DNA from: Naegleria gruberi
Taxonomy: Eukaryota
Length of the DNA stretch: 64,000 bases
NCBI GenBank assembly: GCA_000004985.1
Contig: GG738846.1
Reading direction: 5' to 3' (one strand)
Shown piece after piece: positions 1-23,965 of the stretch. The notes beneath the pieces were generated by a model. It did not search any database, had not been told where the DNA came from, and worked only from the letters and a program-made list of their open reading frames with translations. The position numbers and the translations under genes were made by a program. Each line of letters opens with the position of its first letter. Position 1 is the first letter of the stretch.

Positions 1-177
1 TTAGAATTGGCCAAGGCTTTGGAAGGAACTGGTAATTTAATTTCTGCTCGTATTTGTAATTTTGAACAAGTAATTTCAGATCCATCTATCTTTCAGAAAA
101 TTTTAACTTTAAAACCAATGAATTTATCAAATACTCAAGCCTTTCCAAATATTGTGGAGGAAACTTTATTAATCTAA
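1..177 (+). CDS. 3' end of an unidentified protein-coding gene (C-terminal 58 aa, stop TAA at 175-177); the 5' part lies outside the window
   Basis: Frame 1 is open from the window edge: ...LELAKALEGTGNLISARICNFEQVISDPSIFQKILTLKPMNLSNTQAFPNIVEETLLI*. It is followed by AT-rich non-coding sequence. Confidence 0.3.
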   Translation, partial: LELAKALEGTGNLISARICNFEQVISDPSIFQKILTLKPMNLSNTQAFPNIVEETLLI

Positions 178-1195
178 ATGAAATGATATCATAATTTGTT
201 TAAAATTTCTTTTTCGTTAAACTAAAGAAATTTTCTTTTTCAACATTTAGTTCAAGTGAGATCTTCTTGTTTGAGTTGTTTAAATACTCAACTAAAGCTC
301 ACCAACGATCGATCAAACAAAATAAAAAAAACAAAAGTAAACAAAGAAACATAGATTCATCACTTAAAGGTAAACAGAATAGTTCTTCATTTTAAGAATG
401 AATTGTTTGTATTAAAGGAACCAATAATAAAACATATTCTTTACAATTAACTCAGATCAAAACAAAAGATTCGGTAATTTGAATATTGTAGATCTTTATT
501 AAGGTGCAACTAAAAAACATATGGCAAGGTTATTGGGATTTTGTTTTTTTCTAAAGAGATTCAACAAATTGATTTTTAGTGGAACATTTATAAGACACAT
601 GGAAACAACATATTCCTCTAACAAATTATGAAAACCAAGTGTGTGAGTTTGTAAATTAGTTTGTTTAGTAGAAAGTATTATCTAGCACACCTGAAAGTGG
701 TTAGGGAAGAATTGGTTTTCAATAATGAAGATTTTGTTTTTTCTTAATTTTTGAAATAATTGTTGTGTTTTATTGGTACTTTCTTTAGATTAACGTTAAT
801 GAGTTAAACATCAAATGATTTACCATACTTTTACAATCTTAAACACTAACAAAAAATTTATCAACCTAATTCTTAATTTACGGTTGGTACTTATTAGAGA
901 TCTTGAATTATTTTGTTCTTTCAATATGATTTTCTTATAAAATCAATTAAATTTAAAAAGGTTCACCAATTTTTGAATTACAAACTCATCAATATAAATG
1001 TTGTGGTATTGAATTTAGAGATGTAAATTTTGAATACAACGTTCCTCTTTTTATTTCAATGTGTGTAGTCTTTTACGTTTATCTAAAATATAAATACATC
1101 TTGTGTTTTGTAATTGGCAAATTCAAGTTTCAATTTTGTTGAAGAAAATCTTTTTAAAAATTAAAAAAAATCATTATCCAACAGAAAAGAAATTA

Positions 1196-3123
1196 ATGAT
1201 GACGTCAAATCATTCATTTTCACTTGGATATTTAATGATTCTTCTCAAAGTAACAACAGCAATACTGTTACTTCTTGGCAACATTTCTCATGCTAAAATT
1301 GTTCAAGTTCAAGTTTTATCTAGACATTGTGATCGTTCTCCAGTTTCTCAATATCAAATTCCGACGGATCCTTGGGATTGGCAAGGATTTTTAGCCAAAT
1401 ATTCGTATAGTGATGGTGTTTCTCCTTCAATTCAGATTCCTTTCGGCCAAGGACAATTAACTGGACTGGGTCTTCAACAATGCTTTCAAGGTTTGTTTTT
1501 TGTTTCGAATAATTATCATGTAACACTCAATGAAAACTAGTTGGTAAACATTTTAGAAATAGATACTTGTCAAGATTTATGAATAATACCCAGAATAATG
1601 GTATGTTAATATCTCTGATAATTTAAATTCAATTCGGATAATTGTCATCACATAAAGGAGTGAATGAAAATCCAAATGTCATTAGTAATTTAGTTTATCC
1701 ACAAAACAATCAAATGGATACCACCACTGCTCACTGGAATCCTCAGGACTTTCGTTTCTATGCTACCAATTATGATAGAACATTATTTTCAGTATTCAGC
1801 ATTGCACAAGCAATGTTTCCGAATGGATATGGACCACTGAGCGATATTTCATTGAATGGACAAGTGAATGCAATGCCACAAGGAATGCAACCAATTCCAA
1901 TTCATACTCAAACATCAACCAATGAAATTTGGATGTCTGGCTATGGCAAATGTCCAACTATTGATCTCAACAATGAGGAAAATCAACAAAGTAGTGAATA
2001 TTTGAAAATGATTGCCGATTTTAAACCATATTTGAAAATTATTTCTAACTTGACTGGTATTCCATTTGAGAATGGGTTGATTACAATGAATAGTCAAAAA
2101 TCATTCCTATCAAACATTTTCTCGAATACTGAAAGCAAAGATGAAACAAGAGTTCCATTCTACAAATATCTTGCTAGCCCAGAAGATGCTCCAACACAAC
2201 AAGAATCCACACTATCAAGCTATCCACAATTTACAACACCAATTGATTTTTCAAACTTCTACTTGGTTTTGGATTTACTCAATGTTCAATACTCACACAA
2301 TCAACTCAATTTGAAGGGAATTTTGGATATTTGGGAAAAGATTCTACAAATTGGAGATGCTTCAACCTATAGTACCTTCTCAAGAAAGGTTCAAGGCACT
2401 TTGGGAGGTGGTCCACTCGTTCAAAAGATGATTGTTGAAATGGAAAAGATGATTAGCTCTCTCAGTGGTTTGAAGGCAGACAAGCAAGCAGATAATTATG
2501 GAGCTGATCCTGATGAAAGTAAGACAGTTCCATACAAGTATGTTCATTACAGTGCTCACGACGTGACAATCTTATCCCTTATGGCTGCTCTCAAACTCTC
2601 TGATGACTATCCTCAATTGAGAGCAATTCCACCGTATGGATCTCAAATCTTATTTGAACTTCATCAAAGTGACAATGTACCAGCTGGTCAAAAACCAACC
2701 CTTGACGATTTTTATATTAGAATCAGATATAATAGAGGCTTTTCTGATGATAGTTTCACAGAGTATAGTTTGATTTCTCTGGCTGGAACTGGTTGCAAAC
2801 CAGGAAAGGATTCTAATTTCAATTGTTCCTATTCTAATTTCAAGAGTGTTTGTCAAGCTGATGCCATTCCAAAAGATTGGTGCTCTGAATGCAAGAATAC
2901 TAAGGCAGACATTTGCGTTAGAGCTTTATATGAAAAGGAAAGATCACTAACTACTATCATGCTTGTAATTCTTCCAATCATGGGAGGTTTATTATTGATT
3001 CTTTTGGTCTTAATTGCCATCATTCGTTTGAGAAGCAGTAAACTGTCAAGAATGGTCAGAGGAACAGCTGATACCACAACCATCAATAGTGAAAGTGCAA
3101 CTCTCTATCAAACTCTTCATTAA
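1196..3123 (+). CDS. Histidine acid phosphatase with N-terminal signal peptide and C-terminal TM anchor. Two exons: 1196..1490 and 1658..3123; intron 1491..1657 (GTTTGT...AAAG).
   Basis: Exon 1 carries the signal peptide MMTSNHSFSLGYLMILLKVTTAILLLLGNISHA and the RHCDRSP motif (RHGxRxP family signature). Exon 2 carries the second catalytic HD motif (YSAHDVTILSL) and a TM helix IMLVILPIMGGLLLILLVLIAII. The phase-1 join gives 1761 nt, 586 aa. A NAGNAG-type alternative acceptor at 1660 is possible. Confidence 0.7.
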
Positions 3124-3381
3124 AATCAATTCAATTTCTCAATTAGATGATTCTTGAATATTAAGTCATCACACTTCTTATTGTTGACAAATCTCTTTGT
3201 GTGTTACTACAGCAACAATACGACTGGAAGATTCAAAAATTTGAAATGGTTAATTTCTTTTTTAAAAAATATCAACTAGAAAAAAAACATAACACTACTC
3301 GATATTTCCTCTCTCGATTTTTAATACACTACACATATTATTATTTTCAAAAAGTAGTAGTAAGGAATTAGAGAGTAAAGA

Positions 3382-6300
3382 ATGTTTGAAGGAATTGCTT
3401 CGAGCATTATTGTTAAACTCCTCGGAGATTATATTGAAAATTTAGATAGTAAATCTCTTAAAATTGCTGTATGGAGCGGAAGTGTTAATCTAACCAATCT
3501 AACGTTGAAAGCTTCGGCTTTGGATACATTTGATTTACCAATTTCTGTCGTACAAGGATGTGTTGGTAGTATTGATGCATCGATTCCTTGGCAATCCCTT
3601 TCTAGCAGTCCTGTGATTGCCAAAGTGAGTGATGTCTTTCTGGTTGTTCAACCAAAAAAGTGTGATAAGGTATGTATTATTTGCAATTAGGATTCTAATT
3701 ACTTGTTCGATTTATATAAATATATATTTAATAATGTAATTATTGAAAATAATTTGGAAAATATATTTGGATTTACAAATTTAACGTTTGTTTGGATTAA
3801 TTTCTTCTATCATCAACAAACTGAAAATGTTAATTTTCCAAATTTATTTTACTTCTTCTTTGGATTAATACCCTATAATCTATTATTATCAACTATGCAA
3901 TATTATTATTTGTTAATATTAATCTTACTCACTTGATAGTATGATGAACAATCGGAGAAGGCTAGAGCATTATTGGCCAAACAAAGAAGTCTTCAAAACC
4001 ATGAATTGTGGAAGGAACAACAAGAGGCTGTGGATGACATCAAACAAGATAAAAAGACAGACGATAAACAAGGGGATACTTTTGTTTCTAGAATGACCGA
4101 AACTATATTGAATAATCTTCAAGTGGAAATTTCCAATGTACACATTCGTTATGAGGATGGTTCCAATCCAAAGAATCGTATAGTTTTTGGTATTACCATG
4201 GAAAAACTGTCCTTGAAGAGTTGTAATGAAAATTGGGAGGAAGTTTTTATCAAGACTGTCCAAGCAGCTTTCTACAAGAAAATGTTACTTCAAAATTTAT
4301 CGTTCTATATGAACAATAATGAAATTGAACTCTTTTCAAAATCTGGAATGGATACTAAGAAATTCTCTCTCCATATGAAAAAGATTATCACTGAAAACAA
4401 GTTCTACAGAAGATTTATTGTAAGTCCAATTAATGGAGAAGCCAAACTTGTCATGCAAAAGGAAGGAAATATCGATATGAGCAAACCTACAATGGTGGCC
4501 AATTTGGAATTAGACAATGTAAATTTATGCCTCGATGACAGACAATATAAGAATCTACTCTCAACTCTTGAATATATGAGTAACTACTCACGATTTGAAA
4601 GATTTAGACATTTGAGACCAAAGACAGATTACAAATCGGAAGAAAAGGGATTATGGTGGGAATATTTAATCAATTCTGCAAAGGATATTGTAGAGAAACA
4701 TCACTTTACTTGGCAACAAATTGAGGAACGTAAAAAGCAAAGAAAGGAATATATTGAACTCTTCAAGAGAAGTAAGGAATATCCATGGCAAAAAAAGCTT
4801 TCTGATTCGGAGAAAAAAACTCTCCATTCACTGGAAGACAAGATTGATTTTGAGGATATTATCTTTTACAGGGAGCTGGCCTATGAAGAATTAAAAATTG
4901 AAAAGCAAAAGAATAAGGCATTCCTTACAAAGAACGAAAAATCCTCTGGATGGTTTGGTGGTTGGTGGGGAAGTAAACCCTCAACTGCTACTCAGGAATC
5001 GTCTTCTGGAGAAGAATCACCAACTGCTTTTGAATTTACAGAAGAGCAACGTGAAGAGTTACACAAGACAATTGGTTACAATGCCAAGGAAAAGGCTCAA
5101 TCCATAGAGCTACCAGCAGATTATGTATCCTATCAAATTAATTTTTACCTAAAGCAAGGAGAACTTAAACTTAGAAATGCCAGAGTGAAGAGTAGTGATC
5201 CAGATTCAGCCATTGTTAAAGGTGCCTTTAATAACTTTAGAACCGAGGTTGGTGTTAGAGCTCAGGGATCTGTCATTGTACGAGTGACATTGGATGATTT
5301 TGAAATTACAGATCATTTCTCTGATGTGACACAATTCAAAAAGATTCTCTCAAGAAGAAAGCAAGTTGGCCATTTGGCAGAAATTATTGTGGAAAATAAG
5401 CCTCTAGATGGTGAATCAGATTTGAAGGTGCAAATATTGCTTCAACAAGTTGACATTGCACTCAATGTTCCTCTAGCTCAAAAAATTCTCTCCTTCTTTA
5501 TCATTCCATCAAATTTGGACTTTTCTGCACTTCAAAACCTTGCTAAAAAGCAATTTGAAAGTTTACAACAACAAGCTCTCACACAATTGAAGGTTGCTTT
5601 GGAATCTAAAATGTTAATTGCTTTGGATGTGTTAATTTTGGCTCCAACATTTATTATTCCTATCGACTATAAGGATGAAAACTCTAAAATAGTATTACTC
5701 GACTTGGGTAAATTGAAATTCAAGAGTGATATTGATAAGAAAGAAAGAGAAAGGAGAATTAAGAATGAAACTGTAGAAGAAAAAGATTTTTATGATAGAT
5801 TCGACCTTGAACTTTCAAATATCCAAGCAGTCATTACAGATGTTCCAAGCTATAACAAACAAACAACGACAAATTCATTCCAACTTATCGAAAAGGTTAA
5901 TATATTTACCAAGTTGGGTATTCTCATTACAAACGATACCAACTATGCTGGAACTAAAATTGAAGGAACCATTCCTTCTATTAAGGTTAACCTTTCTCCT
6001 CTAGCTATGAATACCATTGTTAATGTAGCCAACAACTTCCTTGTTCTAGTGGATAATCCAACTGGTAACAGTAAGGAAGATGTTGAAATCAAGGGTGCAC
6101 TCAAGATCAAATCAGACCTTTTGACAAATGGTGAATTTAAACCATATTGGACTGAAGTGACAGAAAATGGTAAAATCATGCTCTACACCACAGAAAATGA
6201 TATGAAACCTTCAGGATGTATTTATATCGATGATAGATCCATTGAATATCAATTATCTGACAAAAATCCAGATTTAACAGAGAACCAACTGGCTATTGTA

Positions 6301-9300
6301 ATTCCTCAAGAGTCTGGTCCTACAACTGTAATCTTTGAAGCCGAAAGCAAAACTTTACTTGACAAGTGGTTTACCTTAATGTCCACCAAGAATGTTAACA
6401 AAAAGCTTAGTTTCGAATTGAGCAATAATGAAAAGTCTCATAATGAAGAGGAAAAACAAAAGAATGTCAAATTGAAACTCAACTTTAATTTGGGAGAATT
6501 CTGTGCCTCCCTTATTTATAACAAGAAGGTTGGAGAGAATGAATTCACTGAAATGCCACTAACAGATATCAAACTTCAAGATTTTGGTGTTGATATGGCA
6601 ATAAGACACTATGATACCATTATGAATTTTAGTTTAAAGACATTTACAATTAGTGACAAGACCACAACAGCCACTGATAAGTACATTTTAACATCAGATT
6701 TGCAATCAGATAAGAAACTTGCTGATCTTACTCTTATCCAAGTATCAGATCCTCTCTCTGAACATTACAAGAGAAATGCCGATTTATTGTTGGAGTTTGT
6801 TTTCCACAAGATGTTATTCAACTTTGATCCTATGTCCTTAACTACCTTTTTAATGTATATTTATGATGTTTTGGATTTGACTCAAAAGATCGAAGCAAGA
6901 GTTCCAACCATCACACCAACCGAAATGAACAAGAAATTTGAAAAACGAGACAAAAACAGAAATAGTATGGATTTGCATGCTAATTTGTCTGAGGTAAGCC
7001 TTGCATTGGTTCAGGAAGACTTTTCCAGCTTTGCCACTGCTACAGTTGCAGATGCTGATGTTTCATTCTCTATGAATGATTTGGGATTATGTGTAAAGGG
7101 TACAGTTGGTAACTTGCTTGGAATTGATGACTCTAATGATGGTACTATCTATAGAGAAATTGTTGGTCTCTCCACAACTGATCAAAAGTCTCTCATTACT
7201 TTTAGCTATATCCAAAATAATGAAAGACCTGAAAATGTTGCCCCAACTCAACCTTATTATAACAAGTTCTTGAAACTTGTTTTGGAATCTGTCAAGATTG
7301 TCTACTTGAATCGTGTTATTGTCAAGCTTCAACATTTTATGCAGAATGGTCCTCTTTGGGATGCCCTGGCTGCTGGAGGTAAAAAAGTTTCTGAATACTC
7401 TAAAGACTCAGTCTTGAAACAATATGAAAGTTTGGAACTTTTTAGTTTGGATGTTAAATTGGTTAATCCTCTCGTAATTGCTCCAATGGCTTACAATAAT
7501 CCAGATGTTATTGTTGGTAACTTGGGTGAAATTACTGTTAGAAACTCACTTACTCAGAGAGAAGACTGTTGGATTGAGCTCTACGCCATATCCTTCACTC
7601 AAATGAATTTGCACACTATTACCAGTGTTAACAATAAGCAATTTGTTGGTGGTATGGATTGGTTGTTGGATGTTGAAAGACCAGTCGTAAACCCTCTGCA
7701 CAAGGTTCCAGGAGTATTCGTAAATATTGCTGTTTCTGATGTTGCTATGAATCTAACTCATGAACAATACCAAATGATTTTCAAAGTAGTGGATGGTAAT
7801 GTGAATGATAACGCTGGATTTTCTTCGTCAAATGAAGCTCTTACCAATGAGACTAAGAAGACTGAAGATAAGGTTCTCTCTGAATCTGATGCCAAAATTA
7901 CAGATCTCATTGTCAAGGTTAAATTCTCCAATCTTAATTTGACAGTTTTAAGAACAGCCGATGATCCATTGGCCAGATTGAATATGTACGATCTCAATGT
8001 TGATGTGAATACAAAGAGAAATGGATTGTCTGTAACAAAAGTTTCAATTCATGCAACAGATGCCCATGATTTGAGAAAGCAATCCGATAGTTACTTCAAG
8101 ACTTTTGTCGACACTAGAGAGGAGGAAAATTCTCAACACTTTATCAATGTAGACATTTATAACGATCCTGAAAAGTCTCTGGTAAAAGTAGATGTCAAGA
8201 TGGGCAATCCAAGAATTATTTTCGTTCCAGATATTGTATTCGAAATCCAAGACTTCTTTGTGACCATGAGACCAGAAAAGGGTCCAAAAGGAAAAATTCT
8301 TACCTATGAAACAATGCCATCAGGTGACATTCATATTAATTCTGACTTGACTTTGGGTCTGGATTTGTCACTTTCTCCAGTAAGAAGATTAGTTGTACAC
8401 AAGACTGAATCTGGTGTTGTCGAAGTTAATGGTAATGGTCATACTATTGATTTACCATATGATTCCGTATTCAAGGTGGATGAAGGTATGATTTTAAAGC
8501 TTGTCAATGTAAAGATTAAGAAGCAGTCAGACAAGACCTTGGAAGATTATGCAGAGCTTGGTGAAAAAGCCAAAATTTCTACTAATAATAGTGTTGTTTT
8601 TGTTGGTGATACGGATATTGAAAAAGAAGATAAGGCTACCATTGTAGTTGTATCAATTGACAATCCTAACGTAATGTTCCCAGTTAAGCCAAGCGATCCT
8701 AACAGTAGATTGATGGTTCTGAGATCTAAACTCAAATTCAAGATGGAAACAAGCGCTAACAAACAAAGCATTGTTGTAATGATTTCTGAAATGACAATGT
8801 TTGTTGACAGCTTCAATTCAACAATTATTTCAAAGAATAACATTCTCGAACCTCTCTCTCTTGATTTTGAATACTTGTCAAGTACTGAGCCACAAGCTGT
8901 GCACAATGATATCAAGGCAAGAATTGATGGCAATGTGAGGTCTAGAATCTCCTATCAAGATGTCAAGATGATAACCGAAGTGGTAAATCATTTTACTGAT
9001 GCAATGAGCAAATCGAAGAAGGAAGAAGTTCCTATTGCCTTTGAAGATGTTGAATTATCTGATGATTCTGGATCAGAATCTGAAGAAGAAGAATTTTCAG
9101 AAGCTAAGGATGAAACTGAACATATTGATGGTCAATTCGTACTTAATGACTATGTAGAGTCAAGAAATAACCTAGCCGTGATACCAACTGTTGAAGAGAA
9201 AACTAACAACAAGACTACAAACTTTTTATTCAACTTTGACATGACACCAGATCAATCTGTATCCATCCTAGTGGTAGACGATGTAAGAGGTTATGATATA

Positions 9301-12300
9301 CCATTAATTACTTTTACTATGAGAAAAGTTCACTTGATTGAAACTAAAATGACTCAATTGGGCGACACTTCCTCTATTAAGGCCAAGTTGATTGGTTACA
9401 TTCAAGCTGATTATTATAACTTGAAGATTGCCTCTTGGGAACCAATTCTTGAACCTTATGGTATTGAATTCCTCTTTAGAAGAAAGCCAAATACAAAATC
9501 AGCAACTCCAAATGTAGACAGATTTGAAATTAGAGATTTGGATATTCCAAAATACAAGCAAATGTATCATCCTGAAGAGTTTGATGGTTTATTGTTGAAT
9601 GTTACCCAATCAATGATTACTACCGTTTCTTCTACAGCCAAGTTGTGGAAAGATGAATTTTATACAGAAACAAAGGTATCAAAGAAGTTTGATCCATACT
9701 GTATTAGAAATCATACAGGTCATATTATCAAATTAATTTTCCCATACAATACTCAACTCCAAAAAGCAGACATGTACGAGATTGGAACTGGTCAAGAAAT
9801 GAACTTTTCTCTACCAGAAGATAAAACCAAAACTGCTCATCATGCCATAACAATTGATGTTCCTGGATTTAACAAATTACAAGTTGAATTGAAACAAACT
9901 GGTAAACTCCATATCAAGAATAATAAGAATGAATTTTGTATGGTTGATAATGATTTGAAAGAAGGTAGAAAGATTATAACTATCAGTTCTGGTATTCAAA
10001 TTAGAAACTTGTGTACTATGGATTGGGAAATTGGTTCTCTCAACATCTCCTCCAAGATGATTACCAGCTTTGGTATTGTTAATCCAAAGGAATATATTGG
10101 TATTCCACTGACATCTGTATCAGAAGGAATTCTTTGTATGAGACCTTGTATTGGAGAGGGCTATCAATGGAGTTTACCATCTGGTGGTCTCAAATTTACA
10201 GAATTACTCAAACTCTACAAGGGTAGTAAGAATGTCACTATTACAAATCAAAAGGGCCCTAACATGTTTGCTGTTGTGAGAACCAACTTTGCCCTCGATG
10301 CAGACTATCAACAATTCAGAGAAAAGTATGCCGAAAATCCACTCTTGTATCAAAGATTCTACTGTACTCTTGATATCAAACCACCTTTGGCAATTGATAA
10401 TACTCTTGGAAAGACTGTCGATTTCACAATTATTGCTCAATCACCTCAATCAAATGAAAGAACAGTTGTACAGGAAGGTACCATGTTGAAGGGTGAAAAA
10501 TTATTTGTCTACTCTACAGAAATGAATAACAACATACTCATAAGAGTAAAGGTTGAAAAGGAATGGGTGACTAAAGAATTGGGACTTATCCATTTGGCAA
10601 AGAGAGACGGCACAATGACACAACAATCAACACATATCAATATTGAAAATTCAACAGGAAATTATTCACGTATTTACATTGACTATTCTGAAGTGAATAC
10701 ATCTGCCTACCGTGAAATTATTCTATTCTCTCCATTCTGGATTGTTAATCACACTGGAGAGAATGTAGGAGTTAGAAATTCTTCCACAAGTAACAAGCCA
10801 TTCATTGTTCCAACTGGTGAAACTTTAATGTATGCAGAGACTTATGATCGTGAAAAGATTAGCATTACATGCAACGATTCTGCACCAAGTCCAGCCTTCT
10901 CATTAGCTTCAAGTTGAAGAGAAAGAGAAGATCTACAATTGGCGAGAATACTAAACCATCTCTTACTCATGCAGCCTCTTCAGCTAGTATGATGGGAGAA
11001 GGACAAATGAGTGATTATACAGAGGAAGAGGAGGAAGATTTCAATTTATTCATGCTTGCTGAAATTAACCAAATTGGTGTGTCATTTATTGATAACTCTC
11101 CAAGTGAAGTTGCCTACTTGTTGTTAGGTGGATTGACGATGAGATATGCCACAACAGACAAACATCAATTTATTGAATGTGTGCTGTACAAACTTCAATT
11201 AGATCACCAAGATTATGAGGCTACCTATCCTGTTATTTTATGTAATGTTAATGAGGCAGGACAAGAATTTATTCACTTTAGTTTGTGTAGATCTGTTGAA
11301 AACAATACCAATGTAAATACCTTCCCATACATGTCATTAATGATGAGAGAAGCTCGTTGTGAAATTGACTACCTCTTTATTTCCAAGTTTGTGAAATTGA
11401 TAGGTATCTTGTCAACAGACCAAGATCAAAACAATGAAGCTGATGCTCAAATTGCTGAAAGAATGACCAAACCTGTTGAAATTCCAAAGTCTGAAGCTGA
11501 TGCTGAAAAGTTCTACTTTGAAAATCTCGAATTGCACCCTGTAAAGATCCATTTGACATTCAAACTCAATCAAGCAGAAGATGATAGTAATCCACTTTTG
11601 ATCTTGTTTAAATCTGTTGGTGTCACTCTTACAAGAATTGATAATGCTCCAATGAGATTTAACTCACTCATTCTTAGCCATCCGTTCATGACACTCAATG
11701 CACTTATTGATAAGGTTAAGAAACACTATATTCGTCAAGCCACAGTCCAATTCTACAAGATTTTGGGTTCTTTGGATATTATTGGTAATCCAGTTGGATT
11801 GTTCAGTGATATTGGTACTGGTGTCGTTGACTTTTTCTATGAACCTGCCTCTGCCATCACAAAGAGTCCTGAAGAATTTGCCAGTGGTTTAGCAAAGGGT
11901 TCTATGAGTTTATTGAAGAATTCAGTCCATGGTATTGGTAATTTTACTTCAAAACTTACAGGAAATGTTGGTAATGGTATTGCCTTTTTGACATTTGATA
12001 AGGAATACAATCAACAACGTGACAGACAAGCCAATCAAAAACCAAAAGATATTAAGGAAGGTTTGGCATCTGGAGCCAAGTCTTTATTCCGTGGTATTTA
12101 TGGAGGTGCTACTGGTATTGTTATGCAACCTGTAAAGGGTGCTCAAGAAGAAGGTGCTGTTGGTTTTATTAAGGGTGTTGGCAAAGGTATTATTGGTATT
12201 CCTCTCAAGCCAGTTGGTGGTATTATTGATATGGCAACAAGAACTGTTGAAGGTATCAGTAACAGTAGTACTACACTCTTCACTCGTGTCAGGTATCCTA

Positions 12301-12740
12301 GAACTCTGGCTGACAATGGTGCTGTTTTAAGATATTCATTAACAGATGCTTATGCCAAGTATCTTACTGTCTCTATTGATGATGGTGCCTATGCAAAGAC
12401 CAACAAAGCTGTCTATTACATGCCAGATTCAACAAAGGCTGCTGTTTACTTGATTACTGACAAGTTTATTTTGAAGGTGGACCCAGTTGAAAAGAAGGTA
12501 AAATGGAGAATGCAACTTTCCAAGATTATGAAGGTTGAATTGGTTTCAGAACCTACCGATGCCATTAAAGTGGTAAGCAATGAAAGAGAAAAATCAATTT
12601 TTGGAACTTCAGGAGCAAACATTACGAGATTATTAGATTCATTTGATAAGGAATATTTACACAGATTTAAGAACAAGCTTAATATTGAGTTATCGAGAGT
12701 TTTCAAAGAACAGCAAGAGTTTGACGTTGTAGATTATTAA
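3382..12740 (+). CDS. vps13: VPS13 family bulk lipid-transfer protein, about 3,000 aa. Exons: 3382..3669; 3940..about 10829 or 10917; then a frame change into 10869-10907..12740.
   Basis: The N-terminal chorein motif is present (MFEGIASSIIVKLLGDYIENLDSKSLKIAVWSGSVNLTNLTLK...PWQSLSSSPV). Intron 3670..3939 (GTATGT...ATAG) gives a phase-0 join to YDEQSEKARALLAKQ. The middle of the gene is a continuous 2314-aa ORF. The C-terminal part has the hallmark VPS13_C/ATG_C block (ILGSLDIIGNPVGLFSDIGTGVVDFFYEP, GIIGIPLKPVGGIIDMATRTVEGI). The frame switches from +1 to +3 within 10863..10917 (see findings). Confidence 0.85.
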
Positions 12741-12816
12741 AATAAAACACTTGTATTATTATTATTTTGAGAATTCCACTTTAAAAAATCATTAAACAAT
12801 AAATCTTGATGAGGTA

Positions 12817-13125
12817 TTATTGTTGATATTGGAAAGCATTTTGCTCAATCATTTTATCCAATTCGAATTGAATTATTTCCGTTTTGTCTTCCATTACAAA
12901 TAAATGGGTTTCATCAAGGTCAAAGAGAACAATTTCTGTTCCGATATTTAAATTGAACATCATTCCGATCATAAATATTCCAAGCATTAGATGATTAATG
13001 TATTGAAAGTTAGTAAAATAAACAAATCCATGCATACCATTGTTGTACTTTTTGTTCAGATACAATACAAACTCCTTGATTGCCGGATCACATTCTAACA
13101 ATACTCCACTGATGGCGTTTACCAT
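12817..13125 (-). CDS. tfb5: TFIIH subunit p8/TTDA (Tfb5). Exons 13038..13125 and 12817..12935; intron 12936..13037 (GTATGC...AACAG); 68 aa.
   Basis: MVNAISGVLLECDPAIKEFVLYLNKKYNN|E|IVLFDLDETHLFVMEDKTEIIQFELDKMIEQNAFQYQQ aligns along its length with TTDA ([25 protein letters not shown]...IIQDIDDTHVFV...LMDQNAF). The unspliced ORF has a 34-aa hydrophobic insertion that the intron removes. Confidence 0.65.
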   Translation of the reverse strand: MVNAISGVLLECDPAIKEFVLYLNKKYNNGMHGFVYFTNFQYINHLMLGIFMIGMMFNLNIGTEIVLFDLDETHLFVMEDKTEIIQFELDKMIEQNAFQYQQ

Positions 13126-13323
13126 TTTTTTTAAACTTGTTTTAAAATTTGATTATAATTTTGAAATAATTTTGAATTAATGGATTTGATGAATGCAAGT
13201 TGTGTGAAAATAAATGAACACAATTTAGAAACAAAGAGAGAATTAATTTTACAAAATAATTTATCAATAGTTTTAATTTACAACTAGTTGATCCTAGTAA
13301 ATTGCATCAAAAGATGACAAAAT

Positions 13324-13599
13324 TTAGAAAGAACAAGTGGCAGTCTTTCCTTGTTCAACACTTTGCACAGTTTGTTGTCCTTGCAAGGATTCAAAAACTT
13401 TAACATGAACGTGTTCAGAGTCACCAACTTTAATCTTCAACTTGTGATTGATTCCGGCAACAACTTGAGTAGAATGAGCAATAACTTCAAAGATATCAAA
13501 AGTACGAGCAGTGATTTCTTCTACTTTAGCCTTGATGCTTTGAGCAAGGGTTCTTGATTCTTCAGTGATTGGTTGATTGTGTGCACCGCCGGCCATCAT
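13324..13599 (-). CDS. Stefin-type (family 1) cystatin, a cysteine-protease inhibitor; 91 aa, single exon
   Basis: N-terminal MMAGG (Gly-Gly segment), the QVVAG papain-binding loop (STQVVAGINH), the typical size and no signal peptide. Confidence 0.75.
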   Translation of the reverse strand: MMAGGAHNQPITEESRTLAQSIKAKVEEITARTFDIFEVIAHSTQVVAGINHKLKIKVGDSEHVHVKVFESLQGQQTVQSVEQGKTATCSF

Positions 13600-14199
13600 G
13601 TTGTTGTTTGTATTTATGGAATATTTTTTAATTGTTTTGAAAAGAAGCTTAACGGAAAATCAGAGAGATTTTTATACCCAACGGAAAGATAAGAATAGAT
13701 TTTAAGAAGGAATTAAGAGTTACCTTGTGAAATGATTTCCTTTCGAATGGATGTTACCACTTTTTGTGTTCATCATGCAAGTGATTGAAGGTTATCAGGA
13801 ATTACCAAGGACCTTGAATTTGTCACCAAGCTTGAGAACGGATTCAGGTTAAAATGAATTTGATTTTTTAAAAAATAAAACCATAATTTTATTTAAAATT
13901 GATTTGCCGTTCAAAGCCAATCAGTAATTTTGTTCCAATTTTGATTAGATGATGTATACACATTTATTAAACCCAGTTCACTTTGAAGATTATGTGAAAA
14001 CAACACTTTCCTAAGTAACTAATCTGATCAACTTATTTATTGCCTTAAAAAAGAAAATTATGTTTCAATTCAAAAAATATGATTTTAAACTTTTTTCAAG
14101 TAAACTTTCAAAATTAATGTTGAGGTGAGTTATGGAACTTAAAATAATAGCCTAAATCTCAATGATAATAGATGAAAGTTTAAATAATTTTATTATAAA

Positions 14200-15225
14200 T
14201 TACTTCTTGGTTGTCTTCTTTGTAACTTCAACCTTCTTCTTCTTTGGCTTTGGTTCTGCTACTTCTTCCTTCTTCTTTTCTTCCTTAGTTGACTTCTTAG
14301 TTGTGACTTTCTTAACAACAGGTTCTTCTACTTTTTCTTCAACCTTTTCTTCAACTGTTTCTTGTTCTTCTTGTTCCTCTTCTTGTTCTTCCTCTTCTTC
14401 TTGCAATTCTTCCTTGGTTTCTATCAACTTTCTCTTCTTGATTGTTGGTTGAGCTGAAAGGATATCATGGAACTTTTCTTCAGCATGTACAATTGCTTTC
14501 TTCAACTTGTCTGTTGTATTAGTCAAGAGAGAAGTGGAAGAAATTTCACCATCGGCTTTAGTGGAGAGAGCTTCTTGCAAAATCATGGCAATCTTGTCAA
14601 TATTGACATCTTGTCCGAGACTAATTGTTTCCCTCTTAGACTTGCCTTGTGATCTAATCACAGCATTTTGAGTATTACTCTTATCACCGTGAATATGTAA
14701 TTTACCTCTCATAATTAAATTGGCCAAAAGAACTTCACCTTCACCAATAGTGGTCTTTCCTTTAGAAATAGTAATAACATTGGCAATATAGAGTAAGTTT
14801 GTCAATGAAAATTCGATATGTTCCTTCAACATTGGGAGAGCTCTACTACCGAATGTATATGACTTTTGTGATGGTAATAAGTCCACAAGCTTATCGGAGT
14901 GGAGAACTCTCTTAACATTATCTCTCAAGATGGTTTCAGGAATTAAACACTTTCCGGAGGCTTGCAAAACCTTCGAATGGAGTTCAGTCTTTGTGTATTT
15001 TCTTCCTAAAACATTAATGAGTAATTCTGATTTTGGTTTTCTATTTAAACGTCCTTTTGCGAGAGCTTCAGAATTTCCTTTCTTTTTTGTTGTTGTTTCG
15101 GCTGATGTTGTTGCTTCAACTGGTTTTTCAACTTCTCCAACCAGGTTGTTGAATGCTTCCATCATTGGGTCTTTTGATGGTTGTTTGGCTGGCTTGGACT
15201 TCTTAACTTTTTGCTTAGCTGGCAT
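14200..15225 (-). CDS. Lys/Glu-rich, probably nuclear protein of unknown family; 341 aa
   Basis: Long clean ORF with a basic N-terminus (MPAKQKVKKSKPAKQPSK) and a C-terminal EEEEEQEEEQEEQ...KKKEEVAEPKPKKKK tail. The central globular part was not assignable by eye. The antisense ORFs 14162..14452 and 14930..15238 are low-complexity mirror artefacts. Confidence 0.4.
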   Translation of the reverse strand: MPAKQKVKKSKPAKQPSKDPMMEAFNNLVGEVEKPVEATTSAETTTKKKGNSEALAKGRLNRKPKSELLINVLGRKYTKTELHSKVLQASGKCLIPETILRDNVKRVLHSDKLVDLLPSQKSYTFGSRALPMLKEHIEFSLTNLLYIANVITISKGKTTIGEGEVLLANLIMRGKLHIHGDKSNTQNAVIRSQGKSKRETISLGQDVNIDKIAMILQEALSTKADGEISSTSLLTNTTDKLKKAIVHAEEKFHDILSAQPTIKKRKLIETKEELQEEEEEQEEEQEEQETVEEKVEEKVEEPVVKKVTTKKSTKEEKKKEEVAEPKPKKKKVEVTKKTTKK

Positions 15226-15537
15226 TTTTTTAATATAATTTTAGATTTAAAAATATTTTTGAACAATTGCAAAATTTTAAAAATTAAAGTTGTTGTGGTT
15301 TTCTCTTGAAAGGAAGTGTTCACTGGAAGTTTGAATGTCAATAGTTGAGTGCACATTTTCATATGAAAATGAGAGAACTAAGAGTTGGATTCAATAAAGG
15401 AATGTTTTCTCCCTTAGGAATGGTTCTTGGCTACCAGTAATTGCCAATATTGGAAAGTTCTCTTTTGCCTGATTAATATTAATTATTCTATCATTACAAA
15501 ATCAATTTCAATTATTTAATCAAAATCATAAAAAAAA

Positions 15538-17280
15538 ATGACAAACAAGAAAAAGCCTAATCACACCAATAAAACATCTTCCAAACCATCGACAATAAAT
15601 ATCACGAGTAGCAGCACAAATTCTCTGAATAATTCGAGTCAGAGTGTACTTTCCGAAGATCGATCGACCAATGTTTCAAAGGCTAGTAACATTTCAAAAA
15701 GTCAAAATACAACTCAGAGTCAGAACTCACAATCAAGGACCTCTTCTTCAAGTAGTAATGATGTAAATTCTATATTATCAAAAAGTACTTTATCAGTGGA
15801 ATCAAAAAAATCAATTCAAGTGGTTCCAAATAATTTTCAATCTTCCATCAAATTTGCTCCAGTGAATGAGAAATTGAAAGAGTTTTTGGTAACTATTGGT
15901 TGTTATTGTTATGAATTGTTTACAGAGGAGTTTGATATACTCCCAGAGGATACACTATTCGAAAATTTATCAACTCCTCAACAATTGAACATGTTGACTA
16001 ATTTTATTGTAAATTATGTTTGTTTTGATGTGAATGGTTCTGTAATGACCAGAAAATTTGTAAAGAAATTGGATAAAACTATTGGAGAAAGTTTAGTTTT
16101 TGATAAGGAGGCCTATCTGAACGATGCTGGAGATCGATTGAATAGTTTCATAACTTTGAGGTTTTTAATTGCATTTTTGAGGGGGAAATTGGAGATGGAA
16201 ATTGATATGTTCGGATATAAGGATTCAAAGCCAATTAAACGAGGCAATGATATCACTGTTGAAGATGTGATGAGAGTTGGTACTGTATTTTCAGCAAAAG
16301 AAAGAAGTGCTGTGAAAGATGTAAAGAAGAAAATGACAAAAGGAGAACAAGACTATGCTTTCACTGATTTCAAGGACCAATTCAACTCGAAGCATGATCA
16401 CAATAAGTGTTTTTTCAAAATTTTCAACTCTTATTTTGAAGATGTTCCTCCTGAAAAACGATTGTGTGATGAGCCTGAAGAAGTCAGATTCCATTTTAGA
16501 AAAACAATCGTTAATGCCTTGAAAGGTGTTGTTCCAATCTCTAAATTCAATGAATCACTATACAGATGTCAAGAAATGGATGTTTGGTTGACCGTATTGG
16601 AAATGATTTTTAATGGATTTGTAACTACCTTTAGTAGTGAGCTGTTTTTTTTTGTGGAAACCAATTTTGATCCTCTTGAGAAGGGTTGGATGGCCCTTGT
16701 CCAGTTTGTCAATCAGAACACTAAACTTTTCAAGAAGGTCTATAAGCCATACATGTATCATAGAGATTTGAACAAGTTGCAATACATTTTCATAGACAAT
16801 GATTTATTTAGTGGCAAGATGAATGAAAAAGCAGCAAACTTTGTTGGATCTGTTACGGACTATAATGCACAAGTATCTCCAAAACGTGATTCACAAGTTT
16901 ATTTCTCTATCTGTATTTATCTATTAATAATGGTAAAGAATGGTTTGAACATTAATAGTAGGCAAGAAAGATTGAGAGGTTTTATGGAAACTTTCAAATA
17001 CCACAAAGAAAACAAGTTGAAATTTTTGAATATTCACGAGCCAGAAAATATCAAAGTTTCCAACGATCTCAAACCTATTGTCGATCATCTTCCAACATGC
17101 TCATACTGTCGAAAGACTATGGAAACTGCCTTGAAATGCTCCAAGTGTAATTCGGTATTTTATTGCAGTACTAAATGTCAAACAAGTGATAGGCCAGAAC
17201 ACAAGCATTCATGTGCAGCTCTTTGTGAAATGATGGCCCTATCGAGTGCTGAACTGAAAATATTTGTAAAACAAAAATAA
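15538..17280 (+). CDS. MYND-type zinc-finger protein with a Ser/Asn/Thr-rich N-terminus; 580 aa
   Basis: The C-terminal CSYCRKTMETALKCSKCNSVFYCSTKCQTSDRPEHKHSC matches the MYND C4-C2HC pattern. It is a single ORF with an A-rich tract upstream of the ATG. Confidence 0.6.
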   Translation: MTNKKKPNHTNKTSSKPSTINITSSSTNSLNNSSQSVLSEDRSTNVSKASNISKSQNTTQSQNSQSRTSSSSSNDVNSILSKSTLSVESKKSIQVVPNNFQSSIKFAPVNEKLKEFLVTIGCYCYELFTEEFDILPEDTLFENLSTPQQLNMLTNFIVNYVCFDVNGSVMTRKFVKKLDKTIGESLVFDKEAYLNDAGDRLNSFITLRFLIAFLRGKLEMEIDMFGYKDSKPIKRGNDITVEDVMRVGTVFSAKERSAVKDVKKKMTKGEQDYAFTDFKDQFNSKHDHNKCFFKIFNSYFEDVPPEKRLCDEPEEVRFHFRKTIVNALKGVVPISKFNESLYRCQEMDVWLTVLEMIFNGFVTTFSSELFFFVETNFDPLEKGWMALVQFVNQNTKLFKKVYKPYMYHRDLNKLQYIFIDNDLFSGKMNEKAANFVGSVTDYNAQVSPKRDSQVYFSICIYLLIMVKNGLNINSRQERLRGFMETFKYHKENKLKFLNIHEPENIKVSNDLKPIVDHLPTCSYCRKTMETALKCSKCNSVFYCSTKCQTSDRPEHKHSCAALCEMMALSSAELKIFVKQK

Positions 17281-17588
17281 TTAGAAACAGCATTAGTTTT
17301 ATTCCTTAGATTTCACATGAATGAATTTTAATAAAGGAATGTTTGTAAATCTTTGTTGAATCTAAATAATCTGTTGTTTTTGAGGTTGATATTGTTTCAG
17401 GTATTTAATTCAAATATATGGTGGGATAACACTTCCAACAATTGTTTCATTTAAGGAGGTAAATCAAAGCTGTGAAATGGTTTAAATATTTTTATGGAAC
17501 TAGGATTAACAATTTATTTTTTTATTTTTGATATTGGAGGAGTAGAATTTCTAGAAAACATACCATATGTATCGATAAATCTACAAAT

Positions 17589-19124
17589 TTAGTGAGTGGC
17601 AGCATGTTCAGAGTGACTTCCATGACCTTCTACGTGGTGTTGATGAATACCACGAGTCAAATAAAACCAGACAAGCCAAAACAAAAATAAAATCCAAGAA
17701 AGAGAGAACATTACAAGAGCAAAGAGATGCGGTGACTTGATACCAATAATATCGTTAAGTAATGGTGATGGAATCATAACACCCAATGCTTGACCAGCTC
17801 CAAAACCAAAGCAAATATCAAAAGCAGTAATACGACCCAAAAAACTATTTGGTGTCAAATGTTCAATTGAAGACATACTATAGACCCACATGGTACCACC
17901 AGCAGCTCCAAGAATAAAGTTAGCGGCAATAAACATGGATGCATGAACAGAGAAGGTCATTAAGGCAAAACCAACAGCCAACATGAAGAAGGAAACTAGA
18001 ATTACAAATCTAGTCCAGAAGGCACTTCTAACTGAACGTCTAATTCTATTACCCAAAATCAATTCACAAACCATTGGAGCAATACCAGAACCAACACCAA
18101 ACAAGCAGTAAGCAAATGTCATTGTAGCTTCAGCACTGTCAAATAATGTCAAGGTTGGGAATTCAGACAATTTAACATTGATAAATTCGACAGAAGCCCA
18201 AATCAATGCACCCAATAATTTCATGACAGTAAAGCTCAACAAGTATCCTTTTCCACTAAATAAAAGCTTGAAACCTTGATATAATTCAACAACACTGTGT
18301 TTGATAACTGGAATTGGCTTTGTTGGGAAATCTGCAGGCTTTGGAGGATTCAATTCAGGGAACCACATTAATGAAATGGTCAAAAGCAAGGCTAGAACAA
18401 AGAGTATTCCGTTAACAATAAAAGTGACAGTCAAATTAGTGAGAGTTGTGACAAAACCACCAATAGCAGCACCAGTATAAGAACAGAATAACCAAGTCAA
18501 ACTATCAAGAGCATTACAAGCAACCAGATCGTTGTGATCCACAACTAGAGGAAGTAAACAACCACGAGAAGCATCATAAAAAGCATTGATAAAGAAAATC
18601 AAGGCAAGAATGACATAGTAAAACCCGAACAATATTGGTGTTTCTTCAATTAAATGACTAAAAAGTAAACAAAAAGCAAGGATAGCTCTCAAAATATTCG
18701 CCACAATTAAAACTTTTCTTCTATCAAAAACATCGGAAAATACACCAGCAAAAGGCATAGCGAAACAGGAAGGAGCAAAGATACACAAAAATACAGCACC
18801 AGTGGCAAAACCAACATTGGATCTGTGTTCAACTTCGTATACAATACCAATTTCAGAGAAATAGTTACCCATACCAGACAAAACACCAGCCATCCAAATA
18901 ATCAAAAATCTCTTGTTGTGGAAAAGAAGTGAAATGTATGGATTACGAGCAAGTTTTGGTTTAGAACTATCCAAGTCCAATTGGGCATAGTTACCAATGG
19001 TATGTGGAGTTTCCATATTCATTTCAACATCAACAGATGGTCTGGATGAAGCATCCAAATCTACAGAAGAACGGTTGTTTTCTTCATCTAACCGAACCTC
19101 TCTCATATCGGCATCGGTCATCAT
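17589..19124 (-). CDS. Major facilitator superfamily transporter; 511 aa
   Basis: About 12 predicted hydrophobic helices in a 6+6 arrangement with a central cytoplasmic loop and a hydrophilic N-terminus. It is a single exon. Confidence 0.6.
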   Translation of the reverse strand: MMTDADMREVRLDEENNRSSVDLDASSRPSVDVEMNMETPHTIGNYAQLDLDSSKPKLARNPYISLLFHNKRFLIIWMAGVLSGMGNYFSEIGIVYEVEHRSNVGFATGAVFLCIFAPSCFAMPFAGVFSDVFDRRKVLIVANILRAILAFCLLFSHLIEETPILFGFYYVILALIFFINAFYDASRGCLLPLVVDHNDLVACNALDSLTWLFCSYTGAAIGGFVTTLTNLTVTFIVNGILFVLALLLTISLMWFPELNPPKPADFPTKPIPVIKHSVVELYQGFKLLFSGKGYLLSFTVMKLLGALIWASVEFINVKLSEFPTLTLFDSAEATMTFAYCLFGVGSGIAPMVCELILGNRIRRSVRSAFWTRFVILVSFFMLAVGFALMTFSVHASMFIAANFILGAAGGTMWVYSMSSIEHLTPNSFLGRITAFDICFGFGAGQALGVMIPSPLLNDIIGIKSPHLFALVMFSLSWILFLFWLVWFYLTRGIHQHHVEGHGSHSEHAATH

Positions 19125-19589
19125 TTCGTTTTATATTATTGTTTTTTATAAAATCCTTTCAAAATCCTAAAATCAATCCAACAGAATCCACAATAGAAAA
19201 CGCGCAATAGAACCTGAGAGGTTTCAAGTATTTTTTTTAAAACAAATATTTTTTTAAATTCAATATTTCATTGTTTACGTTAGAGATAGCGCAAATGTAG
19301 GTGTCGTAACAAAAATGGAGAGGTATCCATACCTAGATAACAGCTCATGTTTCCGTTTGTTTTTGATTGAGAAAATTAAATGGAAAATTATTAGAAGAGT
19401 AGTATTCAGAGTTGAATTTCAATCACTATAATGAATAGTTAATCCCTAGTATTATTTAATTTTACATAACAAAGTTAAATTGTTTAATTCTAACTTTTGA
19501 AGTGGTGACCTAAATACCAAGACCAAATTCACACTTTTAATCATGGACTAAAGCTTAGAAATTGTAAATTATCAATAAATTTAAAAAAA
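19125..19589. promoter_or_regulatory. Divergent promoter region between the MFS transporter (-) and DHODH (+)
   Basis: 465-bp AT-rich spacer between opposing start codons. Poly-A/T tracts lie immediately upstream of both ATGs. Confidence 0.35.
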
Positions 19590-20843
19590 ATGTCCTATCA
19601 AAGACAATTCAAACTCATGACCATGTTCGGAGCAACTTGTTTGCTCTCTGGTGGTGCAACATTTGTTTACAGGGGAATTAATGATGTTGATTCACCACTG
19701 TACTCTAAATTTGTGATGCCTCTCTTACACAAGATGGATCCCGAAGATGCACACAATTTATCAAAACTTGCCATAAAGTATGGAATTGGTCCAAAGGAAA
19801 AGAAATTAAAAGCAAATCAATATGGATTGGATCCACTCATTAGCTTACATACAAATTGTTTAGGATATCATTTTGAGAATCCTATTGGATTGGCAGCTGG
19901 ATTTGACAAGGATGCCGAATGTATGAAAGGAATTGAAAAGTTGGGGTTTGGTTTTATGGAAGTTGGAAGTATTTGTCCTCAACCACAACCTGGAAATCCA
20001 AAACCTAGAATTTTCAGATTGAATTCTAAAGTTTCCGATCCAGATGGAACAATTTTTGATACCATTCTCAATAGATGTGGATTCAATAGTAAAGGAATGG
20101 AAGTTTCGGATGAAAATTTGACAACCTATAGAAATTCATACCAGTCTCTTAATACATTCCCAATTGGTGTCAATTTGGGAAAGAACAAAACAAGTGCACC
20201 AGAAAGTATTGAGGATTATTTGATTGGTGTGAGAAAGTTGGCTAAACATGCAGATTTTTTGGTTATTAATGTCAGTTCACCAAATACCCAACATTTGAGA
20301 TCACTCCAGGAAAAGAGTTCCCTTGATACATTAATTGAGGAAGTTTCTACAGAATTGAAAAAACACAAAAACATTCCACTCCTTATCAAAATTGCACCAG
20401 ATTTGACCCTCGATCAACAACGTGACATTGCTTCATTGGCACTCAAACATTCCATTGGTGGTATCATCGTTTCCAATACAACTATTGAAAGACCATTTGT
20501 ATCGAGTGAACAAATTAATGCCATTCCAAATGGATCTGCTGGAGGTATGAGTGGTCGTCCACTCTTCAATCAATCCACTAAAGTTTTGAAGAATATGTAC
20601 AAATTAACAGAAGGTAAGGTGACACTCATTGGTGTTGGAGGTGTTTGGGATGGTTATGATGCATTACAAAAGATCCAAGCTGGTGCTTCACTAGTTCAAG
20701 TTTATACAGCTTTCACTGCTCAAGGTCCAGCTGTTGTTGGTAAAATCAAGAGAGAATTAGCTCAGTTACTTGCTGAAGGTGGATATGCCAGAGTTTCTGA
20801 TGCTGTTGGCTCTAAAGCCAAGTTTAGTAAATTGGAAGAATAA
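19590..20843 (+). CDS. DHODH: Dihydroorotate dehydrogenase (quinone), class 2, mitochondrial; 417 aa
   Basis: N-terminal targeting/TM segment (MSYQRQFKLMTMFGATCLLSGG) followed by DHOD motifs: GFDKDAE, GFGFMEVGSICPQPQPGNPKPRIFRL, NRCGFNSKG, INVSSPNT and SNTTIERP. Confidence 0.9.
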   Translation: MSYQRQFKLMTMFGATCLLSGGATFVYRGINDVDSPLYSKFVMPLLHKMDPEDAHNLSKLAIKYGIGPKEKKLKANQYGLDPLISLHTNCLGYHFENPIGLAAGFDKDAECMKGIEKLGFGFMEVGSICPQPQPGNPKPRIFRLNSKVSDPDGTIFDTILNRCGFNSKGMEVSDENLTTYRNSYQSLNTFPIGVNLGKNKTSAPESIEDYLIGVRKLAKHADFLVINVSSPNTQHLRSLQEKSSLDTLIEEVSTELKKHKNIPLLIKIAPDLTLDQQRDIASLALKHSIGGIIVSNTTIERPFVSSEQINAIPNGSAGGMSGRPLFNQSTKVLKNMYKLTEGKVTLIGVGGVWDGYDALQKIQAGASLVQVYTAFTAQGPAVVGKIKRELAQLLAEGGYARVSDAVGSKAKFSKLEE

Positions 20844-20944
20844 ATTATTTCATATTAATTTTTTCATATTTAAATATTAATTTCATTAATTTTTTCGATT
20901 CCAATATTATGCTCCATTCAAATTACTACTATTATAATTGTAAA

Positions 20945-21292
20945 TTATTCATTATTCTTTATTTTCTTGGTTTTGTTTTCATCATCGTCATCCTTCATAT
21001 CATCGTCGTCATCCTCTCCATTCAAACCTTCATCCTCATCTTCGTCCGATGATCGTTGTTGTTTCTTTTTTGTACTATTAGTAGTCGTAGTTGAATTAAT
21101 TACTTGTTGTTGTTTCTTTCCCAAATCAGTTAATAAATTAACATCCACATCCTTCATAGATTGCATTGATTGTGTCAAAAAGGTGAGATCTTGCTTTTTT
21201 GTTGTTGATGATGATTCAAAAGATTGTTTGGAAGCAATTTTTGGTTCCGAATTATTATTGGTCACTGTGAGGGTTGATGTAATTCTTGGCAT
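20945..21292 (-). CDS. Small acidic low-complexity protein (115 aa), hypothetical
   Basis: ORF MPRITSTLTVTNNNSEPKIASKQ...DEDEDEGLNGEDDDDDMKDDDDENKTKKIKNNE. Its composition is protein-like, whereas the antisense ORF 20967..21527 is poly-S/C/F and looks like an artefact. It converges on DHODH. Confidence 0.3.
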   Translation of the reverse strand: MPRITSTLTVTNNNSEPKIASKQSFESSSTTKKQDLTFLTQSMQSMKDVDVNLLTDLGKKQQQVINSTTTTNSTKKKQQRSSDEDEDEGLNGEDDDDDMKDDDDENKTKKIKNNE

Positions 21293-21547
21293 TTTGTTTA
21301 ATGTTGAAATTGTATTGTTTAAAAAACAATTAAATATATTATATTTTGATGATACTACAGTTTATTATCTAAATCAAGATAGTCAACTATGTATTAATTC
21401 ATCACAACACAACAATATTTGCTGTTCCTATTTAGTAAAGAGCAAAATTGTAAGCAAGCACAAAAATTTTCGTATTATTCAACAAACAAATTTCTGCTCT
21501 CCATTGTTTGCCTCGTTTTCTTCTTGATTGCCAACAAATCAAAAAAA

Positions 21548-23218: not shown

Positions 23219-23269
23219 ATATATATGTAATAATTTATTTAAATGTAAATCTATAATATGTTTCTTTAG

Positions 23270-23403: not shown

Positions 23404-23656
23404 GTGAGTTGGGGTTGGGGGACTGCGGGAGCAAGGGGTACTAGAAAGTACATTGTACTTCTTTTTTCATTAATAAAAAATGCACTCAAGAAAAGATTAA
23501 AGAGACAGCACTTATTAAGGAGGAAGTTCATTATGTTGAGAAACTCGTTTGATATAGTGGAAGATTAACTAGTAATTCAGTTAGAAACAAATTTATCTAA
23601 TTTGGAACCCAGCATTTCTGAAAAAGTCCAATTCATTCTTTACAATTAAAGCACAT

Positions 23657-23941: not shown

Positions 23942-23965
23942 AAGAATGCAGATAGTTTGATGCCA

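Follow-up and report, generated by a model that had tools for sequence, protein, structure and literature searches.

A broken reading frame in a Naegleria gruberi VPS13 gene points to a probable recent loss of some 0.77 kb from its VAB domain

Does the VPS13-family gene of Naegleria gruberi NEG-M encode one continuous protein, or is its reading frame broken, and if so, by what kind of event? The gene lies in a 64-kb stretch of assembled DNA (hereafter, the window) and belongs, by its N-terminal, middle and C-terminal domains, to the VPS13 family. As assembled, it fails to show two features of that family, namely a complete six-repeat VAB domain and a C-terminus that is in frame with the rest of the protein. 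The coordinates of the break in the original prediction are confirmed: frame 1 is open from position 3940 (the ORF 3973..10917 amounts to 2314 aa when counted from a TTG) and terminates at TGA 10915-10917, whereas frame 3 is open from 10863, immediately after TAG 10860-10862, to the stop codon at 12738-12740, and the two frames are simultaneously open only over 10863..10914. The VPS13 C-terminus does continue in frame 3, as had been proposed, with a Pfam match to VPS13_C (9.6e-10) that lies behind the frame-1 stop. The features of the locus are collected in Table 1.

Exon 1 shares 97% protein identity with positions 4008-4292 of the corresponding locus of Naegleria lovaniensis, and its join to exon 2 is colinear with that species. 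Exon 2 yields Pfam matches to VPS13_N (5.9e-122), VPS13_M (1.7e-28), a PH domain (1.4e-5) and VPS13_VAB (6.9e-24). Scans for local repeats and for bacterial-type promoters and terminators returned nothing relevant to the break. The earlier attribution of this DNA to a dictyostelid has to be abandoned, as five ORFs in the window are exact matches to N. gruberi NEG-M proteins (D2UZD3, D2UZD4, D2UZD5, D2UZE5 and D2UZE7) from a 1,001,995-bp scaffold, which places the window in the NEG-M reference assembly, and the best database relative of the VPS13 region, at 68% identity, is a protein of N. lovaniensis.

Table 1. Coordinates of the VPS13 gene features in the window
Feature	Positions	Strand	Description
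VPS13 exon 1	3382..3669	+	ATG at 3382; 96 codons, MFEGIASS...KKCDK; starts the N-terminal chorein/VPS13_N region
Sole genuine VPS13 intron	3670..3939	+	270 nt, GTATGT...TAG, phase 0, 80% AT
VPS13 exon 2, frame 1	3940..10914	+	2325 codons; VPS13_N, PH insert, VPS13_M and first part of VAB
VAB remnant	9700..10906	+	repeats 1-3 and first half of repeat 4; conserved-Asn motif starts at 9700, 9997, 10390 and 10738
Putative 77-nt intron, read as coding sequence of VAB repeat 4	10830..10906	+	encodes 26 residues, MYAETYDREKISITCNDSAPSPAFSL
Putative deletion junction	10898..10911	+	TTCTCATTAGCTTC; left flank TTC TCA TTA (F S L, frame 1), right flank AGC TTC (S F, frame 3)
Premature TGA	10915..10917	+	three out-of-frame codons (A S S) past the junction
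VPS13 C-terminal part, frame 3	10905..12740	+	611 codons and stop; post-VAB linker, C-terminal groove region and VPS13_C

This N. lovaniensis protein (C9374_012143, XP_044542578.1, here P0001) and its neighbouring gene models make up locus L001 on PYSW02000055.1. The window gene is colinear with positions 4008-14348 of that locus throughout, at ~70% protein identity, with the sole exception of the interval ~11732-12502. The two genes share the same domain order (VPS13_N, PH insert, VPS13_M, VAB and VPS13_C) and 70-97% protein identity along their parts, but the N. lovaniensis gene keeps 259 residues, comprising VAB repeats 4b-6 and a linker, that are missing in the window gene. The N. lovaniensis assembly has problems of its own at this locus, with four frame changes in the gene and an annotation that splits it into four models. 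On neither side of the window gene was there synteny with the locus in N. lovaniensis, and the two genes are thus putative orthologs that may instead be old paralogs.

The missing residues fall precisely at the break. In a tblastn comparison, P0001 residues 1-577 matched window positions 9271-10911 in frame 1 and residues 835-998 matched positions 10905-11378 in frame 3, and residues 576-834 (259 aa) fall exactly between the two window frames, which end with '...FSL' and resume with 'SFKLKRKRRST...', respectively. Across the break, P0001 reads '...DNSGASTNFSL TNVGTSGNF ... (259 residues) ... NKLITQ SFKLKRKRRSTQGEN...', whereas frame 1 of the window reads '...NDSAPSPAFSL ASS' followed by the stop, and its frame 3 reads '...LLI SFKLKRKRRSTIGEN...'. 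The 259-residue segment has no tblastn match anywhere in the 64-kb window, and the idea that it had been moved elsewhere within the window was rejected on this basis. The Pfam profile VPS13_VAB tells the same story: the window gene covers only positions 52-323 of 570, as opposed to 48-565 of 570 in P0001, and in three full-length relatives from other Heterolobosea, including two from Pharyngomonas kirbyi, the match extends to ~565. P0001 carries six conserved Asn motifs (residues 147, 246, 401, 526, 622 and 734), and only the first four of these are kept in the window, the motifs of repeat 5 (VIVNSTD) and repeat 6 (YLIDNQL) having no counterpart there. Relative to N. lovaniensis, the missing part thus begins ~50 residues into VAB repeat 4, takes in repeats 5 and 6, and ends with the linker that precedes SFKLKRKRR. 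That this part measures 1 mod 3 in length is enough by itself to put the downstream sequence in frame 3 instead of frame 1. Besides splicing, the original prediction had listed a frameshift, a pseudogene or strain variant and an assembly error as fallbacks; the direction of that list was right but it overlooked the ~259 absent conserved codons, and a simple 1-nt indel fails as an explanation because 259 aa of coding sequence (~772-778 nt) are absent at the junction.

At the codon level, the putative junction joins TTC TCA TTA to GC TTC AAG. The junction can be read in two ways, which put the missing block at 772 or 778 nt; both values are 1 mod 3. The tetranucleotide CTCA occurs at the junction in the window and in each of the two flanks in N. 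lovaniensis; the longer string TTCTCA fits the left flank (TTC TCA CTC ACC) and CTCATTA fits the right one (AAA CTC ATT ACA CAA AGC TTT). Microhomology of at least 4 nt would be expected at a random 772-nt deletion 2% of the time. However, the ancestral N. gruberi sequence is not known, so the microhomology at the junction may have been anywhere from 1 to 7 nt. Short junction microhomology of this kind is typical of end joining and of replication slippage. A splice-like removal of the whole 0.77-kb segment is unsupported, as the block, with N. lovaniensis taken as a proxy, does not begin with GT.

Several ways of restoring the frame without invoking a lesion were considered. The original prediction proposed a cryptic GT-AG intron, and the sequence elements that it named are present, with GTATGC at 10830, ...CATTAG ending at 10906, a length of 77 nt (2 mod 3) whose removal would restore the frame without introducing a stop, and an AT content (58.4%) close to the ~60% that had been given. 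Nevertheless, this segment encodes conserved protein (MYAETYDREKISI...FSL), and its 26-residue translation aligns with MYSEAYDREKIAIMVDNSGASTNFSL of N. lovaniensis, within VAB repeat 4. The alleged donor GTATGC lies in the codons ATG TAT GCA (M-Y-A), and the ATG TAT pair is conserved in N. lovaniensis. The composition of the segment is that of an exon, 58% AT against an exon mean of 65% (sd 4%) and 80% in the real intron of the gene. A GT-AG pair is here at chance level: donors in 10400-10915 can be combined with acceptors in 10864-11400 into 300 frame-restoring, stop-free pairs, so that the existence of one is uninformative. Moreover, splicing would not recover the missing 259 residues, so any frame-restoring fix would still leave a VPS13 protein without VAB repeats 5-6. 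We therefore regard the removal of this or another short intron as very unlikely. Even less credit can be given to continued translation of the C-terminal part, by programmed -1 frameshifting in the 52-nt overlap or by initiation at ATG 10869. Formally, passing from frame 1 into frame 3 amounts to a -1 shift, and ATG 10869 opens a 623-codon frame-3 ORF ahead of the frame-1 stop, but neither an X_XXY_YYZ slippery heptamer nor a homopolymer of at least four nucleotides occurs between 10840 and 10914, which leaves no substrate for programmed -1 frameshifting or for a homopolymer-length sequencing error. Programmed frameshifting was rejected for want of a slippery site, an internal promoter or independent expression from ATG 10869 is unsupported, and the whole arrangement, missing from the ortholog, looks like a by-product of the deletion.

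In the comparison with N. lovaniensis, the part upstream of the break has a dN/dS of 0.06-0.07 and the downstream part one of 0.06-0.08, at saturated synonymous sites (pS 0.59-0.79); for the last 193 codons, where synonymous saturation is complete, the ratio is not computable. Protein identity downstream of the break (73-89% by tblastn) is at least as high as the ~70% found upstream. The break is the only lesion in ~9 kb of VPS13 coding sequence, and all 611 codons of the downstream part are open, even though ~5% of single-base changes there would create a stop. The single lesion, the low dN/dS and the open downstream frame together argue that the downstream part has been under purifying selection for nearly all of its history, and the break should accordingly be either very young or not real. 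An old unitary pseudogene, decaying for a long time, would have the observed premature stop and a C-terminal third out of frame, but it was rejected on dN/dS and the single lesion, and we see next to no chance that it is correct. A different kind of old event, a tolerated in-frame loss, in the lineage of N. gruberi, of the 259 residues that span VAB repeats 4b-6, accompanied by a separate 1-nt loss, either real or a sequencing error, would turn the downstream constraint into a sign of continued function. Adding one A at the junction (TTA/AGC) gives an in-frame ...PAFSL-SFKLKRKRRST..., in which the conserved FSL and SFKLKRKRR are seamlessly joined. However, this scenario calls for two independent events within a few bases where one deletion of 3k+1 nt suffices, its left breakpoint lies in the middle of repeat 4 and not at a repeat boundary, the frame overlap has no homopolymer of at least four nucleotides at which a 1-nt error would be likely, and the VAB domain is complete in all full-length relatives examined. 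We consider it quite unlikely, if less so than splicing or long-term decay.

The strongest competitor is a cloning or assembly artefact, in which the VAB domain of the NEG-M genome would be intact and 0.77 kb of it would have dropped out of the sequenced clones or of the consensus, for example, through a deletion in Escherichia coli at a site of low coverage. An artefact predicts exactly what is seen downstream, an intact ORF constrained like the upstream part. Draft Naegleria assemblies do contain frame errors, as illustrated by the four frame changes in the N. lovaniensis ortholog, and the short microhomology at the junction would also suit recombination during cloning. On the other hand, where a Sanger consensus is built at multi-fold coverage, a deletion specific to one clone should be overruled by the remaining reads. 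The N. lovaniensis sequence contains no repeat longer than 8 nt shared between the two flanks, so an assembler would have had nothing to collapse, and repeat collapse was rejected for that reason. The window has no Ns, there is no gap at the break site, and no other lesion was found across the ~9 kb of the gene. An artefact is thus a possibility to be taken seriously, although we hold it to be the less probable reading of the locus.

On balance, we favour the view, with a probability of slightly less than 0.6, that the break marks where ~772-778 bp were lost in a single deletion within the VAB domain of the NEG-M VPS13 gene, and that this deletion was a recent and real strain- or allele-specific event. 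Such a deletion would have taken away half of VAB repeat 4 (the second), the whole of repeats 5 and 6, and the linker ahead of 'SFKLKRKRR'. With a length that is not a multiple of three, it would direct the ribosome through three out-of-frame codons to the stop at TGA 10915 and leave the intact 611-codon C-terminal part untranslated in frame 3. The event would be very recent on the evolutionary scale, and a strain- or allele-specific loss of function is its most likely nature; its origin may have been microhomology-mediated end joining or replication slippage. Naegleria has been described as a mainly heterozygous diploid, with variation in ploidy (PMC9928731), so that an assembly could carry a null allele beside an intact copy. 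The deletion could be heterozygous in the long-cultured, clonal NEG-M, although heterozygosity at this particular locus is pure conjecture, and the assembler would have captured the deleted haplotype. The expected product would be a truncated protein of 2421 aa, or no protein at all if the mRNA is degraded. The 2421-residue form would keep the lipid-transfer groove of its N-terminal region together with VAB repeats 1-4a, but would lack the adaptor-binding site, the C-terminal segment of the groove and VPS13_C.

A variant of this reading is that the deletion is fixed in the axenically adapted NEG-M. It would then represent a laboratory-acquired loss, tolerated or even selected, of the adaptor-binding and C-terminal membrane-targeting parts of one VPS13 paralog. 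Gene deletions underlie axenic growth in laboratory strains of Dictyostelium, which offers a comparison for NEG-M. We judge this variant to be unlikely, somewhat less so than an older in-frame loss; should it be correct, the N-terminal 2421-aa fragment might be partly functional.

The window gene shares the domains of the bridge-like lipid transfer family with yeast Vps13 and human VPS13A-D, and its VAB repeats, like theirs, are ~100 residues long, each with a conserved Asn (PMC7068118). In contrast to the six-repeat VAB domains of the yeast and human proteins, it is devoid of repeats 5-6, and everything downstream of them is out of frame. In yeast Vps13, the adaptor-binding site, or pocket, resides in these same repeats 5-6 (PMC7068118). 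The lesion also resembles the truncating deletions and frameshifts of human VPS13A and VPS13B that cause chorea-acanthocytosis and Cohen syndrome, in that it is an out-of-frame intragenic change after which the protein ends early; Cohen syndrome is typically marked by loss of the VPS13B protein (PMC7068118). Unlike the human lesions, which are characterised disease alleles of a diploid animal, the one in the window is a putative allele. Intragenic deletions that are out of frame and show short microhomology are in any case ordinary events, as are artefacts that mimic them, and no new mechanism is indicated.

Attempts to locate other copies of the gene gave little. Homology searches returned no VPS13 protein from N. 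gruberi or N. fowleri, but they also missed the N. lovaniensis proteins of the query itself, so absence from their results carries no evidential value. A search of representative sequences recovered only distant heterolobosean relatives, exact look-ups of seven candidate gene models for the locus produced no match, and metagenome scans for independent copies of the locus came back empty. A strain with 98.3% identity to the window is nevertheless present in the sample of metagenome ERR1078381 (PRJEB11402). The literature that was searched contained no description of this VPS13 lesion.

The value of these observations is chiefly practical: they bear on gene annotation and on comparative studies of VPS13, and not on new biology. 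As it stands in the N. gruberi NEG-M reference, this VPS13 gene cannot be translated over its full length, and a gene model that bridged the break by a short 'intron' would be wrong. Surveys of the evolution of VPS13 or of the VAB domain that use the NEG-M genome could mistake the break for the loss of a domain in this lineage, or for a split gene. A real deletion would make NEG-M a natural mutant in which one VPS13 paralog is without the adaptor-binding repeats 5-6 and the C-terminus, and as such a modest resource for research on lipid-transfer proteins in Naegleria.

N. lovaniensis also possesses a decayed partial VPS13 copy (P0004, locus L002 on PYSW02000010.1), which covers the same region of the gene and likewise has a deletion with short microhomology. 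In other respects it is quite different, being a 2.2-kb fragment with many lesions (91% nucleotide identity, 23 gap openings) located amid unrelated genes. By its sequence, this copy is a true old pseudogene, unlike the full-length, single-lesion gene in the window. One breakpoint of its deletion lies at the same TTCTCA (the F-S codons) that is found at the window junction.

In N. lovaniensis, VPS13 sequence occurs at the ortholog locus L001 (PYSW02000055.1), which is colinear with the N. gruberi gene, and as a decayed copy at another locus, L002. At the nucleotide level, the L002 copy is 91% identical to L001, with 23 gap openings in the alignment, and it has lost a segment of 155 nt, with an overlap of about 7 nt. 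The right breakpoint of this deletion falls at L001 11717, at TTCTCA (the F-S codons), which is the same place as the left breakpoint of the deletion within the VAB domain of N. gruberi VPS13. The decayed copy corresponds to this gene's 3' portion. It is surrounded by unrelated genes and has been annotated as a protein of 465 aa (P0004).

The reading frame of the L001 ortholog switches four times, and in the annotation this gene is split into four gene models of 1881, 1001, 232 and 168 aa. These frame changes are probably indel errors of the N. lovaniensis assembly and not biology. In N. gruberi VPS13, a PH domain is inserted at the end of the Pfam VPS13_N match, 5' of the VPS13_M region; a PH match, although weak, is also present in the N. 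lovaniensis ortholog.

In a tblastx comparison, no similarity to the regions flanking L001 VPS13 was found in window 1-3381 and 12741-26000. The local synteny of VPS13 is not conserved between N. gruberi and N. lovaniensis.

Features of the window, the N. lovaniensis loci and the metagenome contig L003
Feature	Location	Strand	Details
PH domain (PF00169)	window 6082-6375	+	Pfam E 1.4e-5
Upstream neighbour of VPS13	window 1-3381		histidine acid phosphatase
Downstream neighbours of VPS13	window 12741-26000		341-aa protein, zf-MYND protein, DUF894 protein
Metagenome contig L003, 1-1980	window 43360-45330		ENA assembly ERZ929261 (run ERR1078381, PRJEB11402)
1764-aa protein	window 46755-52046	+	teneurin-like EGF repeats, REJ domain (2.9e-37)
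Piezo-type mechanosensitive channel homolog	window 52156-58893	-	ORF of 2246 codons; Piezo THU9/anchor 2e-68, cap 1.3e-62
Frame change 1	L001 ~5112-5118
Frame change 2	L001 ~9902-9917
Frame change 3	L001 ~12955-12994
Frame change 4	L001 ~13767-13770
Genes flanking VPS13	L001		kinase; Y_phosphatase2, RasGEF, BTB
Decayed VPS13 copy, 2.2 kb	L002 9931-12120		N. lovaniensis PYSW02000010.1

Over its aligned stretch, the metagenome contig L003 differs from the window by 16 mismatches and 5 gaps (98.3% identity); public data therefore include another N. gruberi-like strain that is very closely related. This strain could provide material for testing the VPS13 deletion.

Because the ORF of the Piezo homolog as listed starts with TTG instead of ATG, the gene probably reaches further upstream via introns. 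It is adjoined, in convergent orientation, by the gene for the teneurin-like protein with the REJ domain.
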